From the sequence record OZ035767.1: a DNA stretch of 44,816 nucleotides. The stretch is one strand, 5' to 3'. Positions 30,573 to 44,732 of this stretch are shown in pieces (within the stretch, counting starts at the first letter, position 1; each line of letters begins with the position of its first letter). The position numbers were made by a program, and so were the translations under genes. This stretch comes from Veterinaerplatzvirus T145P1. A model generated the notes under the pieces. It was not told the DNA's origin and did not search any database. It saw only the letters and a list, made by a program, of their open reading frames with translations.

Positions 30573-30773
30573 ATGGCTACTATCTACACTGGAAAATTCT
30601 ACGAATCACGCAAAACTGGTTACGAATATGAGTTGGTCATCACAGAAGATGGTTACATCCTCATTGATGTAATGGATGGAGATTACTCTTTCGAAGTTAG
30701 CCCTAGCTACAAAGATGATTTAGAAACTGTTAAAAACGAATTTGGCGAAAAATTTGATGAGGTATCAGAATGA
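30573..30773 (+). CDS. hypothetical protein
   Basis: Start ATG 30573 after promoter-like element and RBS. Confidence 0.5.
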   Translation: MATIYTGKFYESRKTGYEYELVITEDGYILIDVMDGDYSFEVSPSYKDDLETVKNEFGEKFDEVSE

Positions 30774-30928
30774 GAGAGGCAATTGTAAACTGGAAAACTG
30801 GGGAGGATTCAACGTTCTTCTTCAATACATTCTCACAATACATTGATAAGTTTGTTTTCGTAATTGATGGTGGGTGTGAGGTTGTTGTTCCAATTAAGCT
30901 GGTTGATGGATTGGAGGTATCGGAATAA
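30770..30928 (+). CDS. hypothetical small protein
   Basis: 52-aa ORF, ATGA overlap at both ends; not in the track because under 60 aa. Confidence 0.35.
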   Translation: MREAIVNWKTGEDSTFFFNTFSQYIDKFVFVIDGGCEVVVPIKLVDGLEVSE

Positions 30929-31149
30929 TGGCAATTTTTACATTTGAGAATCAATGGGAAGTATTTAAATTAATGGCAATGCAGGAGTTAAATAAAGCAG
31001 GATATCAACCAAACTCATACGATCTTGCTGAGTCATTGGACTATAGCTTTGAAGAAGATTACCTGAACACTGATATCGAAACATGGCGCGACCGTATGGT
31101 TGCTGATATCGAAGAAATGAAGAAAGATTGCCCGGAGGATTTCTTATGA
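30928..31149 (+). CDS. hypothetical protein
   Basis: 73 aa, acidic; translationally coupled. Confidence 0.5.
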   Translation: MAIFTFENQWEVFKLMAMQELNKAGYQPNSYDLAESLDYSFEEDYLNTDIETWRDRMVADIEEMKKDCPEDFL

Positions 31150-31346
31150 TTAATAATAGACCGTTCGTTGTTACGTTTAAGCCAAGAAACAACACCCCAC
31201 GGATGGATATTGATGAGTACCTTCTAAAGCGCGGGAATAGCTATTTTGTTCTTGAAATTTCCGCAGACTCAGATAGATACATCGTTAAAAACGATGCGGG
31301 TATTGTTGTTAGTGTTTCAAAATTAGATGTGGAGATTGTGAGATGA
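31146..31346 (+). CDS. hypothetical protein
   Basis: Start moved to ATG 31146 (RBS GGAGGA, ATGA overlap). Confidence 0.45.
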   Translation: MINNRPFVVTFKPRNNTPRMDIDEYLLKRGNSYFVLEISADSDRYIVKNDAGIVVSVSKLDVEIVR

Positions 31347-31607: not shown

Positions 31608-31733
31608 ATGAAAATTGTAGACAGAGAGATGTTTGAGATCGCACAGATATACGCAAATGATGCTGTAAAAACTGGCTCTGATTATTGCTGGATGTGCGCT
31701 AAAGAATACCTGAAAATGGCCTACGGCTTATGA
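31608..31733 (+). CDS. hypothetical small protein
   Basis: 41-aa ORF with RBS, ATGA-coupled to the next gene. Confidence 0.35.
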   Translation: MKIVDREMFEIAQIYANDAVKTGSDYCWMCAKEYLKMAYGL

Positions 31734-33530: not shown

Positions 33531-33707
33531 ATGACTAAAATGATTTATTGCACCAAAAACAACTCCAAAACGCTGCCATTTACAGTTAACCAGCCGTACA
33601 ATGCAGAGTACCAGGGTGATGGATATTACAAGATTTACGGTGACGATATGACGTGGATTTTAGCGCCGATTGAAGGTTCACTGGTTGAATTTATTATCGC
33701 TGACTAG
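33531..33707 (+). CDS. hypothetical small protein
   Basis: 58-aa ORF after promoter-like element and RBS GAGGAA; followed by terminator. Confidence 0.4.
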   Translation: MTKMIYCTKNNSKTLPFTVNQPYNAEYQGDGYYKIYGDDMTWILAPIEGSLVEFIIAD

Positions 33708-41101: not shown

Positions 41102-41305
41102 ATGGAAAATATTCGTATTGAAGATGTTCACTTTGACCAAGCTGAGGTCGGAATCACAAAAAGCGCTCGCGGAGACGTTGTATATCTGGACTTTAATCCG
41201 GATGACTACGGGGACGGCCAGATGCTGATGCACTACAGTCCTGATAAGGCGCGCAAATTGGCGGCAGCATTAATCCTGGCGGCGGAGGAGGTGGAGAAGC
41301 AATGA
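41102..41305 (+). CDS. hypothetical protein (paralogue of 40624-40851)
   Basis: Start moved to second ATG (41102) for RBS spacing. Confidence 0.5.
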   Translation: MENIRIEDVHFDQAEVGITKSARGDVVYLDFNPDDYGDGQMLMHYSPDKARKLAAALILAAEEVEKQ

Positions 41306-41562
41306 AACGTTTAATGAAATGCATGACTATTATTGCGGCAATGATTGCTCTTACTGGTTGCGAGAAGGCACCTGAGGTTCAGATTCAGTCAGGTGAATTC
41401 AATGTGGAGCGCCTATTCACAGTGGATGGATGTACCGCCTACCGATTCCGAGATAGCGATAGAGCCATCTACTACACAAATTGCAATGGCAGTACGCAGA
41501 GTGAGTACAGGCACGGCAGGGCCATGAGACAAGAAACAGTTCAGACAGATCGCACTAATTGA
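41302..41562 (+). CDS. putative lipoprotein
   Basis: Signal peptide with lipobox LTGC; ATGA overlap. Confidence 0.5.
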   Translation: MKRLMKCMTIIAAMIALTGCEKAPEVQIQSGEFNVERLFTVDGCTAYRFRDSDRAIYYTNCNGSTQSEYRHGRAMRQETVQTDRTN

Positions 41563-41745
41563 TAAAAGGGGATCCATCCTGACTGGTATAATCCCCAGCA
41601 TCAACCACATGAATGGAAGTTAAGTGACGATATACGAACATAAATTCAGTAGCAGGGGTATTGATATGCTCCTGCGCTATGTAGACGAAAAATACGCAAA
41701 TCTCATGCTTAAGACGCATGGCGGCACAATAACGAGGATTGAGAT

Positions 41746-42075
41746 ATGAGTAAATACGATCGCAAGATTATTGGCATTGATGGCACAGTAACAACAGTAG
41801 ATGTTTATCGTGTTCTTGATGCGTTTGGCGTATCTGACCCAGCCACTCAGCATGCGGTAAAGAAGATGCTTTGCACTGGCCTGCGTGGACACAAGGATTA
41901 CTTAACTGACCTTAATGACTCCATTGAGTCACTACAGAAGGCTAAAGAGATTTACTGGCAGAAGATGATTCATGAATCCGATAAAATCACTGATTCAATT
42001 TTAAATCCACCAAAAGAAGCGAGATTTAGTACTGCTAATGGTTCAGAATTCACTTTCGGAAAGGTTAGAGTCTAA
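41746..42075 (+). CDS. hypothetical protein
   Basis: 109 aa. Confidence 0.5.
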   Translation: MSKYDRKIIGIDGTVTTVDVYRVLDAFGVSDPATQHAVKKMLCTGLRGHKDYLTDLNDSIESLQKAKEIYWQKMIHESDKITDSILNPPKEARFSTANGSEFTFGKVRV

Positions 42076-42122
42076 ATAGCACGAATTGCTAAACCCGCTC
42101 CTGCGGGTTTTGTTATAGTTAG
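42076..42122 (+). promoter_or_regulatory. conserved palindrome-promoter element
   Basis: ATAGCACGAATTGCTAAA - 22 nt containing hairpin CCCGC..GCGGG - TATAGTTA. Confidence 0.6.
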
Positions 42123-42147: not shown

Positions 42148-42240
42148 ATGAAGCAATACACATCAAGCAATCACCATAACGGTCACATCATGCAGTTCTA
42201 TCGCCACAATCTGAAGACTAAGGGAGTGTTTGGAAAATGA
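42148..42240 (+). CDS. hypothetical micro-protein (His-rich)
   Basis: 30-aa ORF after promoter element and RBS; ATGA-coupled downstream. Confidence 0.3.
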
Positions 42241-42455
42241 TTACAATTAACCTGTCAGAAAAGCAAGCAGCAGAACTCAAGTGCATGCTGTCAATCTTTG
42301 AGAAGACAAATGACCGAGCAATTGCAAAAGAGGTCACGACTCAAATCAACAACCAGCAGTTCGACGTCAGTGACTTCGAGTCGTCACGGCAGTACGAAGC
42401 ATTAAGCGTCAACGCTGCATACCTGGCTAACTGGGATAAGGCAACGAAGAAATGA
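42237..42455 (+). CDS. hypothetical protein
   Basis: 72 aa. Confidence 0.5.
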
Positions 42456-42589
42456 TTTACATCCACACGTACTACACTGGTAAGTTTAATAGCGTCAAAC
42501 ATGTCCGTGTTCACGATAACTACGAGAGCGCAAAAGCTCAATGGTTGGTTCTTGGTGGTGACATTAATTCATACAGAGTTGCTGAGTAG
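42452..42589 (+). CDS. hypothetical small protein
   Basis: 45-aa ORF, ATGA overlap; stop TAG embedded in palindromic element. Confidence 0.35.
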   Translation: MIYIHTYYTGKFNSVKHVRVHDNYESAKAQWLVLGGDINSYRVAE

Positions 42590-42632
42590 CACTAATTGCT
42601 AAAACAGTATTGGGGTAATTTGTTATAGTTAC
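42586..42632 (+). promoter_or_regulatory. conserved palindrome-promoter element
   Basis: GTAGCACTAATTGCTAAA - 22 nt - TATAGTTACCCCATCGAAACGAGAGAGG. Confidence 0.6.
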
Positions 42633-42659
42633 CCCATCGAAACGAGAGAGGAATAAGAA

Positions 42660-42839
42660 ATGACATTTCAACAAAGTGAGCCAAAGCTCCAGGCTAATCA
42701 CTTCGATGGTTATTCGACCTTTACCATTGCCCAGGCCTGCGGGATGCGTGACGAACCACAGGTTCACACAATTCACTTAACCGAAGAGCAGGCTCGAGAG
42801 ATTGCTTACGAAATTCTTGAGCAATTGAACCGAATTTAA
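42660..42839 (+). CDS. hypothetical small protein
   Basis: 59-aa ORF after promoter element and RBS. Confidence 0.4.
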   Translation: MTFQQSEPKLQANHFDGYSTFTIAQACGMRDEPQVHTIHLTEEQAREIAYEILEQLNRI

Positions 42840-42888
42840 CGCGACTAAAGCGCATTCTAACGAACGATAATTTAAGTAAGGTGATTCT

Positions 42889-43050
42889 ATGATTAAGATT
42901 GTTTATGTTGGCGAGAGTGATTATGTGGCGCTCATTCAGCGTGGTGATGTGTTCTTCGCTGAGCTAAGTGAGGATGGAAAATATTACATTGTAAAGAATA
43001 AGAATGGCGAGGATATTTACCTATCAAAAGATGAGGTCATAGTTCACTGA
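42889..43050 (+). CDS. hypothetical small protein
   Basis: 53-aa ORF with RBS. Confidence 0.35.
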   Translation: MIKIVYVGESDYVALIQRGDVFFAELSEDGKYYIVKNKNGEDIYLSKDEVIVH

Positions 43051-43181
43051 TGGATAACTACGAATCACCAAGCCAGTGGGCCAAACGAATGCAGGACGAA
43101 GCCAAGACTGGTGAAGAGGCGATGGCTTACTACGAGCTAGCGCAAATTTGGATGAAGCGGGAGGGCAAGAGCAATGATTAA
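43050..43181 (+). CDS. hypothetical small protein
   Basis: 43-aa ORF, overlapping start/stop. Confidence 0.3.
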   Translation: MDNYESPSQWAKRMQDEAKTGEEAMAYYELAQIWMKREGKSND

Positions 43182-43326
43182 CACTTGCATTTATTTTTAT
43201 GGCCATGAATTTATTGATGACTTAATGTACTTTCACGAAAAGTATGGCGACACATTCGAATGCGATGGTGACAATCTTGAGGTTCTAGCGACATTCAATA
43301 GGGGTGGCAAAAATGAGTTTCACTGA
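43174..43326 (+). CDS. hypothetical small protein
   Basis: 50-aa ORF, overlapping. Confidence 0.3.
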   Translation: MINTCIYFYGHEFIDDLMYFHEKYGDTFECDGDNLEVLATFNRGGKNEFH

Positions 43327-43456
43327 ATATGTTATCGCATGTGAACGACTGGTCTTTGATATGAAGACTTTTCACTGGTTCATAATTAAGGATTTAGTTA
43401 AGCCTTATAAGAAAGGTGTTATGCCAGAGCAGTTTGTTAAGTCGTTCTACAAATAG
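43313..43456 (+). CDS. hypothetical small protein
   Basis: 47-aa ORF; stop TAG embedded in palindromic element. Confidence 0.3.
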   Translation: MSFTEYVIACERLVFDMKTFHWFIIKDLVKPYKKGVMPEQFVKSFYK

Positions 43457-43498
43457 CACGAATTGATAAACCAGATCGCCACGGATGGCATATAATCA
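43453..43498 (+). promoter_or_regulatory. conserved palindrome-promoter element (variant)
   Basis: ATAGCACGAATTGATAAA - 22 nt - TATAATCACC. Confidence 0.55.
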
Positions 43499-43529: not shown

Positions 43530-43727
43530 ATGAACAACAAATCAAATGAAGTGACAAAGGTTAAATCACATATCGCAGAAAATAATTATGATGAGTCTTT
43601 GGATTTAGGTTTCAATTCAAGAAAAGTAGTTGTTAACGGAATCATGGGTTTTCATTCTCGCTGCGTTATGGCTAAACCAGTTATTGGCTTTGAGTCTCGA
43701 TGCGTCTTTGTTGGTGGAGTCTTATAA
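43530..43727 (+). CDS. hypothetical protein
   Basis: Start moved to ATG 43530 after RBS. Confidence 0.45.
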   Translation: MNNKSNEVTKVKSHIAENNYDESLDLGFNSRKVVVNGIMGFHSRCVMAKPVIGFESRCVFVGGVL

Positions 43728-43966
43728 TGTTCGGATTATCAGAAGCACACTTCAACGCAGTTAAACGTCAGGCCGCAAAGTTGAACGAAGAGTACAGCAA
43801 GCTATCGCCAAAGCAGCGTAAGGACGATAGGCATGTTGCGACGTTGATTTCTAAGATGTGGGAGCCAGTTTTTACAATCATTAGTCGAGATCGCTTTGTT
43901 TGGACCAGTGGTTATCTTAAGGGTCGCGTCGGTCATGATGAGAATGGGAACAGCCTTTATGAGTGA
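43727..43966 (+). CDS. hypothetical protein
   Basis: Start moved to ATG 43727 (overlaps upstream stop). Confidence 0.45.
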   Translation: MFGLSEAHFNAVKRQAAKLNEEYSKLSPKQRKDDRHVATLISKMWEPVFTIISRDRFVWTSGYLKGRVGHDENGNSLYE

Positions 43967-44023: not shown

Positions 44024-44248
44024 ATGAGAACATTGAGGCAGATTTTATTCGGTTGCAAGAAGCATCACTACGTTTACTATCGTGATATTAAATGGTTCGA
44101 GGAGGCTCATTGCAAGGGTGGTTACAAGACGAAGTTGATATGTAAGAAATGCAGGCACGTGACCAACAGCAAGGTTGATATGATGATTTGCCGTAGCACT
44201 CTTGATTATATGCGTTACGAGCTCATAAAACCGCCAGTTAAGCCTTAA
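44024..44248 (+). CDS. hypothetical Cys/His-rich protein (possible zinc-binding)
   Basis: Track start 44000 is TTG; first ATG at 44024; C-x2-H...C-x2-C pattern. Confidence 0.4.
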   Translation: MRTLRQILFGCKKHHYVYYRDIKWFEEAHCKGGYKTKLICKKCRHVTNSKVDMMICRSTLDYMRYELIKPPVKP

Positions 44249-44457: not shown

Positions 44458-44534
44458 GCTCGAGTGGCGAAAGTGGATATCGCAAGAGACTTCTAATCTC
44501 TAGATTGCTGGTTCGAATCCAGCCTCGAGCGCCA
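44458..44534 (+). tRNA. tRNA-Arg (anticodon UCU), CCA encoded
   Basis: Hand-folded cloverleaf with all four stems fully Watson-Crick paired (7/4/5/5 bp); U8, A14, G18G19, U33; anticodon loop CUUCUAA; T-loop TTCGAAT; discriminator G then CCA. Confidence 0.9.
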
Positions 44535-44549
44535 ATCAAGGAGTTCATT

Positions 44550-44732
44550 ATGTGGGATGTGAAGTTGTCCATTCGCTTAATGGGCCGCTCGTGCAATAGC
44601 TGCACCCAAGATTATGTCGCGTCAGTTGCCGCAATCAGCGCTGAGGATGCGGTAGCGAAAGTAAAGGAGATGTCAGGCGCTGACCCTGACACTCACAAAT
44701 TCCTGGTAGCTTACGTTCGTGAGCGAAAGTAA
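44550..44732 (+). CDS. hypothetical protein
   Basis: Track ORF starts inside the tRNA; trimmed to ATG 44550 preceded by RBS AAGGAG. Confidence 0.4.
   Translation: MWDVKLSIRLMGRSCNSCTQDYVASVAAISAEDAVAKVKEMSGADPDTHKFLVAYVRERK

Follow-up and report, generated by a model that had tools for sequence, protein, structure and literature searches.

The window considered here is a stretch of 44,816 nucleotides (nt) from Veterinaerplatzvirus T145P1 (sequence record OZ035767.1), and the element of interest is an array of very small, overlapping plus-strand genes between positions 42148 and 43456, the first of which encodes, by sequence, a homologue of the anti-restriction peptide Stp of phage T4. The last 3.1 kb of the window are 99.8% identical to the unannotated record of Veterinaerplatzvirus T145P1, and identities of 88-90% are found with annotated T1-like coliphages of the Drexlerviridae (Braunvirinae), namely SU57, FP, BEK1-1 and the 12210I group; on sequence grounds the window is that of a T1-like coliphage (Drexlerviridae, Veterinaerplatzvirus). 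The block of small genes lies upstream of tRNA-Arg(tct) at 44458-44534, and the terminase genes, which follow this tRNA in relatives, are found at the start of the window.

Organization and coding capacity of the array

Seven open reading frames (ORFs) of 30-59 amino acids had been listed in an initial annotation as real, translationally coupled micro-genes, and all seven are present exactly where it had placed them: 42148-42240, 42452-42589, 42660-42839, 42889-43050, 43050-43181, 43174-43326 and 43313-43456. The same holds for three similar ORFs elsewhere in the window (30770-30928, 31608-31733 and 33531-33707). A gene of 72 residues (42237-42455), longer than 60 residues and therefore absent from that list, connects the first two ORFs, and the ATGA overlaps described for the array are located at its two ends, at 42237-42240 and 42452-42455. 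Further downstream, a TGATG junction (43048-43052) and overlaps of 8 nt (43174-43181) and 14 nt (43313-43326) tie the genes together, while the TAATG overlap is found at 43725-43729, where it joins two further small genes just outside the list.

The plus strand of 42148-43456 is covered to 92% by ATG-initiated ORFs of at least 30 residues, the minus strand to 37%; in 5000 shuffles the mean coverage was 23% and the maximum 78.5%, such that none reached the observed value. The ribosome-binding sites had been called good, and the seven starts do pair with the anti-Shine-Dalgarno sequence at -4.4 to -10.8 kcal/mol, above the background of all 1571 ATGs of the window (median -2.2, 10th percentile -5.7 kcal/mol). 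Since both coverage and Shine-Dalgarno (SD) pairing exceed background, the ORF pattern is regarded as real and not as a chance effect.

Conservation of the reading frames, a check proposed in the initial annotation, was assessed by Nei-Gojobori counting of non-synonymous and synonymous change (pN/pS) on codon alignments, for which as many as nine relatives per ORF supplied the homologous regions; as a control, the identical nucleotide alignments were counted in the two other frames. The pooled in-frame pN/pS ratios of the nine ORFs tested range from 0.06 to 0.32, as compared to about 0.7-9 in the other two frames. Along the array, the seven ORFs give, in order, 0.11 (the stp-like gene), 0.23, 0.15, 0.28, 0.29, 0.22 and 0.16, and their start codons and stop positions are conserved among relatives. 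A codon-usage log-likelihood score, trained on the long genes of the phage and compared with 71 decoy ORFs, exceeds the 95th percentile of the decoys for every ORF but the one of 30 residues. Furthermore, PHROG matches are strong (E 1e-14 to 1e-36) for nine of the ten ORFs and weak for 43174-43326. On this comparative evidence all of these ORFs are judged to encode real proteins under selection, and purifying selection in frame, codon usage and PHROG matches together uphold the picture of coupled micro-genes.

The initial annotation had also described these genes as missed. This applies to a 60-residue cutoff, but not to public annotation, for the relatives annotate them, with the exception of stp. 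Phage SU57 carries an annotation for every one of these genes, with a ribosome-binding site, and in Rtp (2006), FP, BEK1-1, JeanPiccard and others the equivalents are entered as hypothetical proteins. The micro-genes thus belong, as ordinary representatives, to a class that is already known and annotated, that of the small accessory genes in T1-like phages; although the finding is correct, it is for the most part unremarkable, and no new genes are involved.

The Stp-like peptide

The first cistron (42148-42240, plus strand) is a stand-alone ORF of 30 codons that begins at an ATG with GAGAGG 9 nt upstream (SD pairing -7.1 kcal/mol) and ends with its stop overlapping the next start (ATGA). Its product matches Pfam PF08133 (E=3.3e-14, 52.6 bits against a cutoff of 25) over positions 2-25 of the 26 of the profile, as well as phrog_6763 (1.8e-14), and is identical to T4 Stp at 19 of 24 residues. 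The conserved Stp core, H-[VI]-M-Q-[FL]-Y-R-x-N-L-K-[TA]-K-G-V-[FL]-G, is present, and its pN/pS ratio indicates strong purifying selection. By these matches, 42148-42240 encodes a homologue of T4 Stp. It is the one gene of the array for which the proposed role as a host-takeover factor is supported, namely by homology; for the others it is a mere suggestion.

The assignment as such is not new, as the RefSeq entry for phage Rtp, whose rtp6 product is 97% identical to the peptide, bears the label 'similar to phage T4 Stp', so that on the strength of this entry it has been on record since 2006. The Rtp genome with its Stp-like rtp6 was reportedly described by Wietzorrek et al. in 2006, as gathered from the RefSeq note and a citation in Kaufmann 2008. 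In a tblastn search of 50,697 phage records the peptide was found in 568, mostly T4-like. The 23 best-matching records, however, belong to small phages of 42-56 kb, among them Rtp, ZL19, 2725-N35, BEK2/3/6, FP, P817, Sf12, ZCEC5, Ro145c2YLVW, hz69, RP180 and Bas95; K1ind2 also has the peptide. Nine fetched siphophage loci from three lineages contain an intact stp ORF of 25-30 codons whose end overlaps the following gene by ATGA; at the Bas95 locus no stp ORF with a start codon was found in the extracted sequence. Of the nine siphophage records with stp, the Rtp entry alone names it, the gene being unannotated in all eight others inspected (FP, 2725-N35, ZCEC5, Bas95, K1ind2, P817, Sf12 and RP180) and likewise in the majority of the listed T4-like records. 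A predicted strong promoter has stp as its first gene in all Drexlerviridae genomes examined; in Kagunavirus, two of the three genomes examined also place stp first behind a promoter, here a canonical one.

It is known that T4 Stp, a peptide of 26 residues, relieves restriction by type IC enzymes (EcoprrI, EcoR124I) and not by type IA enzymes, that it unmasks the tRNA-Lys anticodon nuclease PrrC in prr+ hosts, and that loss-of-function (suppressor) mutations cluster at residues 4-14, the C-terminal eight residues being largely dispensable (PMC3014915). The window peptide shares with it the stand-alone format of 26-30 residues, the origin from a cluster of tiny genes and, as judged from its sequence, the expected action, binding of a type IC enzyme. 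In contrast to the myophage T4, the host genome here is that of a T1-like siphophage of 45 kb; the peptide is longer by five residues at the N-terminus, is without the last residue and carries the changes F4H, E7G and V9I; and T4 pairs Stp with the tRNA repair enzymes Pnk and Rnl1, neither of which was found in the ORFs scanned here.

Promoter-stem-loop cassettes

The ORFs had been placed between promoter elements, and three copies of a promoter-like cassette do bracket the genes on the plus strand. The first (P1, 42079-42119) starts with the motif GCACGAATTGCTAAA at 42079-42093, directly after the upstream stop codon, and continues with a GC-rich hairpin and T-run at 42091-42110, terminator-like in a scan, and a -10-like TATAGT at 42114-42119; it is conserved at the same place in eight relatives. 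The second (P2, 42589-42636) has the motif at 42589-42603 and, inside the stem GGGGTAATTT/(A)GTTACCCC at 42611-42636, the -10-like TATAGT at 42624-42629; the leader CATCGAAACGAGAGAGG follows the cassette. In the third (P3, 43456-43496) the motif at 43456-43470 is followed by a small hairpin, GCCAcggaTGGC, and by TATAAT at 43491-43496.

These cassettes are part of a genome-wide repeat. The sequence GCACNAATTGCTAAA has 19 matches with up to two mismatches, compared to 1.8 expected, and cassettes are located at 2119, 9296, 20577(-), 22884, 27501(-), 30496, 31537, 36988(-), 37775(-), 38956(-), 40542 and 41552, in addition to 42079, 42589 and 43456. The layout is (TA)GCACNAATTGCTAAA, N20, TATAGT, with a fixed distance of 22-23 nt from TTGCTA to the -10-like TATAGT or TATAAT box, which is found in about 15 copies, and with a partly palindromic box, TAGCA-N5-TGCTA, centred near -42. 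GCAC has TA immediately before it at about 13 of the 19 sites, and at 42589 and 43456 this TA belongs to the TAG stop of the upstream gene. A stem-loop is situated within the gap at 42079, 37789, 2119, 43456 and 31537, and encloses the -10 box at 42589, 40542, 37002, 30496, 27515, 22884 and 41552, with folding free energies down to -21.9 kcal/mol. The conserved, CA-rich leader, often CATCGAAACGA, runs into the SD sequence. TTGCTA was considered as a true -35 element and rejected, with no -10-like hexamer 16-18 nt downstream in any copy.

A synteny map of nine genomes, a small sample to which no statistics were applied, places the most variable position of the region at the first gene after each of the three cassettes. 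The slot after the first cassette is taken by stp, by an unrelated gene of 61 residues or by nothing; that after the second by rtp10, by other genes or by nothing; and that after the third by the gene at 43530, by rtp14, by a 43174-like gene or by nothing. The gene order is that of rtp5-rtp15 in Rtp (NC_007603), with homologues of rtp5, rtp6, rtp7, rtp9, rtp11, rtp12, rtp13 and rtp15 in the window and the same cassettes between the gene blocks, rtp10 itself being flanked by two of them. The window differs from Rtp in lacking rtp4, rtp8, rtp10 and rtp14 and in having the genes at 42889, 43174 and 43530 instead.

Related sequences extend beyond the T1-like phages. An intergenic 'putative middle promoter' of KP15, a T4-like Klebsiella phage, matches P2 at 84% identity over 67 nt, and a CATCGAAACGA-type leader also precedes stp in Kagunavirus. 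The aligned segments, 42587-42664 of the window and 601-667 of the KP15 locus (about 84%), include the GGGGTA/TACCCC stem and a CATCGAAAC leader, and P2-like sequences are also present in the 'putative middle promoters' of RB16 and its relatives and in hundreds of Klebsiella siphophage records, which suggests a regulatory cassette common to several phage families.

In this context one should recall the promoter-early stem-loops (PeSLs), which in T4-like phages are found on either side of ORFans within the hyperplastic regions (Arbiol et al. 2010, PMC2839356; Comeau et al. 2014, PMC4122927). Their promoter and terminator activity, and the mini-circles produced by recombination, were demonstrated experimentally only for RB49 and phi1 (PMC2839356). 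The cassettes described here resemble PeSLs in being repeated composites of promoter and stem-loop, with the stem-loop between the boxes or over the -10 box, in filling, in many copies per genome, the gap from an upstream stop to a downstream start, and in adjoining small variable genes. On the other hand, PeSLs have been described only in T4-like myoviruses, whereas the present cassettes belong to a siphophage, and the upstream box is here the partly palindromic GCACNAATTGCTAAA, 22 nt from the -10 box, in place of a canonical -35 element at 17 nt. Any role of the cassettes as promoters, terminators or recombination sites is putative.

The other micro-genes

Behind stp, the first block continues with the 72-residue gene at 42237-42455 (plus strand, as all genes of this section), a homologue of rtp7 with a DUF7180 domain (PF23805, 75.9 bits against a cutoff of 27; phrog_16063; pN/pS 0.25), which is present in all eight relatives compared and overlaps both of its neighbours by ATGA. 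The gene at 42452-42589 (45 residues) is a homologue of the N-terminal part of rtp9/T1 gp04 (phrog_3955, 1.5e-25; the record notes give it as similar to T1), and its TAG stop abuts P2. In phage MM01 this 45-residue protein forms the N-terminus of a protein of 141 residues (1865-2290 of the fetched locus).

The second block opens with 42660-42839, an rtp11 homologue of 59 residues (phrog_7411, 2.7e-33). The family it represents is narrow, with 83 protein clusters of no less than 76% identity; its long contigs measure 40-48 kb, and named matches are in T1-like phages or E. coli only. Its AlphaFold2 model (mean predicted local distance difference test score, pLDDT, 78.7) consists of a three-stranded sheet and a helix in the order beta-beta-beta-alpha; a Foldseek search of this model against the PDB yielded nothing with E <0.01, the best matches being COMM-domain chains with a template modelling (TM) score of about 0.5. 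In 12210I and BEK1-1 the protein constitutes the C-terminus of larger proteins, of 147 and 133 residues, respectively (2317-2760 and 2548-2949 of the fetched loci). The accessory gene at 42889-43050 (53 residues; phrog_38524, 5.9e-18), which some relatives possess and others lack, has a paralogue in the 66-residue gene at 31146-31346 (43% identity over 37 residues, E=6e-7). The two paralogues lie in distant parts of the genome and have the motif YIVKN-G...SK-V in common; an IMG/VR scan with the 53-residue protein returned two distant loci only and was not informative. The gene at 43050-43181, coupled to 42889-43050 by TGATG, encodes an rtp12 homologue of 43 residues (phrog_1312, 1.2e-14) which is present in all relatives compared.

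The gene at 43174-43326 (50 residues), which overlaps its predecessor by 8 nt, is a sporadic accessory gene with the strongest SD pairing (-10.8 kcal/mol). Its PHROG match is weak (0.0035), and its pN/pS ratio is derived from 75 synonymous and 79 non-synonymous differences; by tblastn, 18 Drexlerviridae records contain the gene, with amino-acid identities of 54-100%, and there it is entered as a hypothetical protein. The block closes with 43313-43456, an rtp13 homologue of 47 residues (phrog_22596, 1.1e-35) that overlaps the preceding gene by 14 nt and whose TAG stop abuts P3; the longest ORF would begin at a GTG (43304), whereas the relatives begin at the ATG.

Two genes outside the initial list follow P3. 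The first cistron, an accessory gene at 43530-43727 (65 residues), gave no PHROG or Pfam match, is 89-95% conserved in five relatives (pN/pS 0.31) and occupies a variable slot. To it the rtp15/T1 gp59 homologue at 43727-43966 (79 residues; phrog_303, 4.3e-27; pN/pS 0.08) is coupled by TAATG.

As for the three similar ORFs elsewhere in the window, 30770-30928 (plus strand, 52 residues; phrog_22569, 1.8e-33) is an accessory gene which 16 phage records contain, with amino-acid identities of 82-100%, and which is absent from three close relatives; with no homologue in the fetched loci it stood outside the pN/pS test. Its protein is 100% identical to that of phage 2725-N35 and 82-96% identical to those of three T145P1 records which otherwise match at 99.8%, a pattern of sequence identity that indicates local mosaicism. 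The ORF at 31608-31733 (plus strand, 41 residues; phrog_2180, 2.4e-21; pN/pS 0.11) corresponds to a coding sequence of 126 nt in relatives, and 33531-33707 (plus strand, 58 residues) is a DUF7244 gene (PF23896, 101.5 bits against a cutoff of 27; phrog_4788; pN/pS 0.06) that is annotated in relatives.

Upstream of the array, the GTG-initiated ORF at 41624-41749 was examined as a further micro-gene and not counted (pN/pS 0.65, SD pairing -3.3 kcal/mol, low codon score). It comprises 41 codons, corresponds to SU57_0007 of phage SU57 and shows about 90% amino-acid conservation in relatives; it may instead serve as a conserved leader, placed behind the 41552 cassette and ahead of the 41746 gene. 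In Rtp, rtp4 is situated directly upstream of the equivalent stretch. Also just upstream of the array is an ORF of 86 residues (41302-41562) with a lipoprotein signal and lipobox (…IALTGC), 86% identical to rtp3 of Rtp. On the downstream side, tRNA-Arg is flanked by an ORF of 74 residues (44024-44248), Cys/His-rich and zinc-ribbon-like (CKKHH…CKGG…CKKCRH), which BEK1-1 also has, and by one of 60 residues (44550-44732) that is kept in all relatives.

Interpretation of the array

The locus is best explained, with good though not complete confidence, as an accessory array of real, selected small genes in three operons, with an Stp-type peptide as first cistron. The three short operons would be arranged upstream of tRNA-Arg and the terminase genes, and the overlapping stop and start codons that join most of the micro-genes within an operon would permit ribosomes to pass from gene to gene. 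The genes at 42237, 42452, 42660, 43050, 43313 and 43727 form a conserved backbone, and those at 42148, 42889, 43174 and 43530 are sporadic accessory genes. Judged by their homologues, the other micro-proteins of the array are small proteins that are known for the most part from T1-like phages; the best guess for these, too, is that they modulate functions of the host or of defence.

Several observations weigh against this explanation or narrow it. The gap of 22 nt between TTGCTA and the -10 box is non-canonical for sigma-70, and a generic scan for sigma-70 promoters and terminators gave no promoter excess (11 compared to 13.4 expected) and did not report the cassettes, which were missed because of this spacing. 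The 'early' timing of the region can only be presumed, because the same cassette also precedes structural and replication genes. The codon usage of stp is not distinctive. Within the segment corresponding to residues 4-14 of T4 Stp, 8 of 11 positions are identical, the three changes (F4H, E7G, V9I) all falling here, and the N-terminal extension is common to all Drexlerviridae versions; given extension and substitutions, the target range of the window peptide could differ from that of T4 Stp. For the non-Stp proteins, searches by sequence, against the PDB and NCBIfam, and by fold gave no functional lead: PDB sequence searches with 42237, 42660, 42889 and 43313 found nothing below E=0.03, with chance-level calmodulin and nucleolin matches only, and NCBIfam gave no match for ten micro-proteins. 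Finally, a literature search for expression or protein data on this phage or any close relative found none.

The alternative that retains most weight, though it is considered unlikely, accepts the non-Stp micro-genes as real and assigns them to the phage's own programme, as regulators of transcription or replication or as helpers of assembly or packaging, and not to host takeover or counter-defence. It can be rationalized from the six-gene backbone, which is maintained in nearly all relatives at low pN/pS, a pattern typical of core functions more than of fast-evolving counter-defence genes, as well as from the adjoining terminase genes and from the lack of a match to any anti-defence family. 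This has to be set against the sporadic, swappable genes at the promoter-proximal slots, among them one of a proven anti-restriction type, against families that are seemingly confined to T1-like phages, and against the lack of recognisable DNA-binding or enzymatic domains.

With still less probability, the Stp-like peptide has diverged, such that it acts on another type I family or host complex, or serves mainly as a trigger or decoy. Besides the terminal extension and the substitutions in the mutation-sensitive segment, the cost of activating PrrC in a phage for which no tRNA repair genes were found would favour such a change, and the mechanism of T4 Stp itself is still unknown (PMC12707154). 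However, the core HxMQFYRxNLKxKGVxG varies hardly at all among Straboviridae, Drexlerviridae and Kagunavirus and the peptide is under strong purifying selection, which together indicate a conserved target, and T4 Stp also inhibits EcoR124I, an enzyme without a PrrC partner, so that the peptide would be useful even in the absence of repair genes.

That the frames are open by chance, the region being regulatory and non-coding, with an array of promoters, leaders or small RNAs, might be argued from their shortness, the richness of the region in repeated cassettes and the unremarkable codon usage of the 30-residue ORF, but it is effectively refuted by the comparative sequence data, in view of the frame-specific substitutions in every ORF, protein homologues down to 54-60% identity, the PHROG and Pfam families, the ORF coverage far beyond that of the shuffles, and an Rfam search that found nothing besides tRNA.

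Expected action of the Stp-like peptide

With the array read as accessory operons, the Stp-type peptide, as the first cistron of the first operon, would bind a host type IC enzyme of the EcoprrI or EcoR124I type soon after entry of the DNA, and DNA cleavage would be blocked. Shielding of incoming DNA from type IC enzymes is, by homology, its most likely role. Recognition sites for such enzymes are found in the genome at about the expected frequency (EcoprrI 6, EcoR124I 9, EcoDXXI 12; site sequences after REBASE). In hosts with linked PrrC, the same binding would release the nuclease and lead to cleavage of tRNA-Lys; vulnerability to PrrC, where it is present, is thus the predicted cost of the peptide. 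The phage probably could not repair such damage, because no Pnk or RNA ligase was found in the ORFs of the window that were scanned: Pfam scans of ten of the larger ORFs (182-787 residues) gave no kinase or RNA ligase domain, the smaller ORFs having been scanned in part. There is also no homologue in the window of rtp4 of Rtp, which is annotated as a polynucleotide kinase and resembles a HAD phosphatase.

Early anti-type-I-restriction genes of other phages include T7 gp0.3, whose product Ocr is a DNA mimic, the S-adenosylmethionine (SAM) hydrolase of T3 and Ral of lambda. By analogy, the Stp-like peptide would likewise be a small promoter-proximal product that neutralises type I restriction before the DNA is cut, but it has no sequence or structural relationship with these proteins, and Stp shows specificity towards enzymes of type IC and has only 26-30 residues. 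The position as first-expressed gene would have its parallel in T7 gp0.3 (BASEL paper, PMC8594841).

Wider significance

As a wider reading, put forward tentatively and with doubt prevailing, the cassettes may be the siphophage counterpart of PeSLs and partly interchangeable with them, and unannotated Stp-type peptides may be common in E. coli siphophages without tRNA repair. If this is true, the cassettes could be portable landing pads for micro-genes such as stp, which could pass by way of them from one phage family to another, unrelated one and be expressed at once; furthermore, PrrC would then have its natural victims in these siphophages and not in T4. Of some interest are the frequent non-annotation of stp in siphophages and the similarity of PeSL-like cassettes across phage families.

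The practical value is modest. ORF cutoffs of 50-60 residues, along with many deposited annotations, lose a functionally characterised class of anti-restriction peptides. The BASEL study identified no genomic feature that explains the differences among Drexlerviridae in sensitivity to restriction, with type IA and IB systems only (PMC8594841). Whether or not a phage carries stp is a definite predictor, open to testing, where type IC hosts and PrrC exclusion are concerned; this is relevant to the choice of T1-like phages for therapy or biocontrol, and the promoter-proximal variable slots are the places in which more counter-defence genes of the Drexlerviridae are to be sought.

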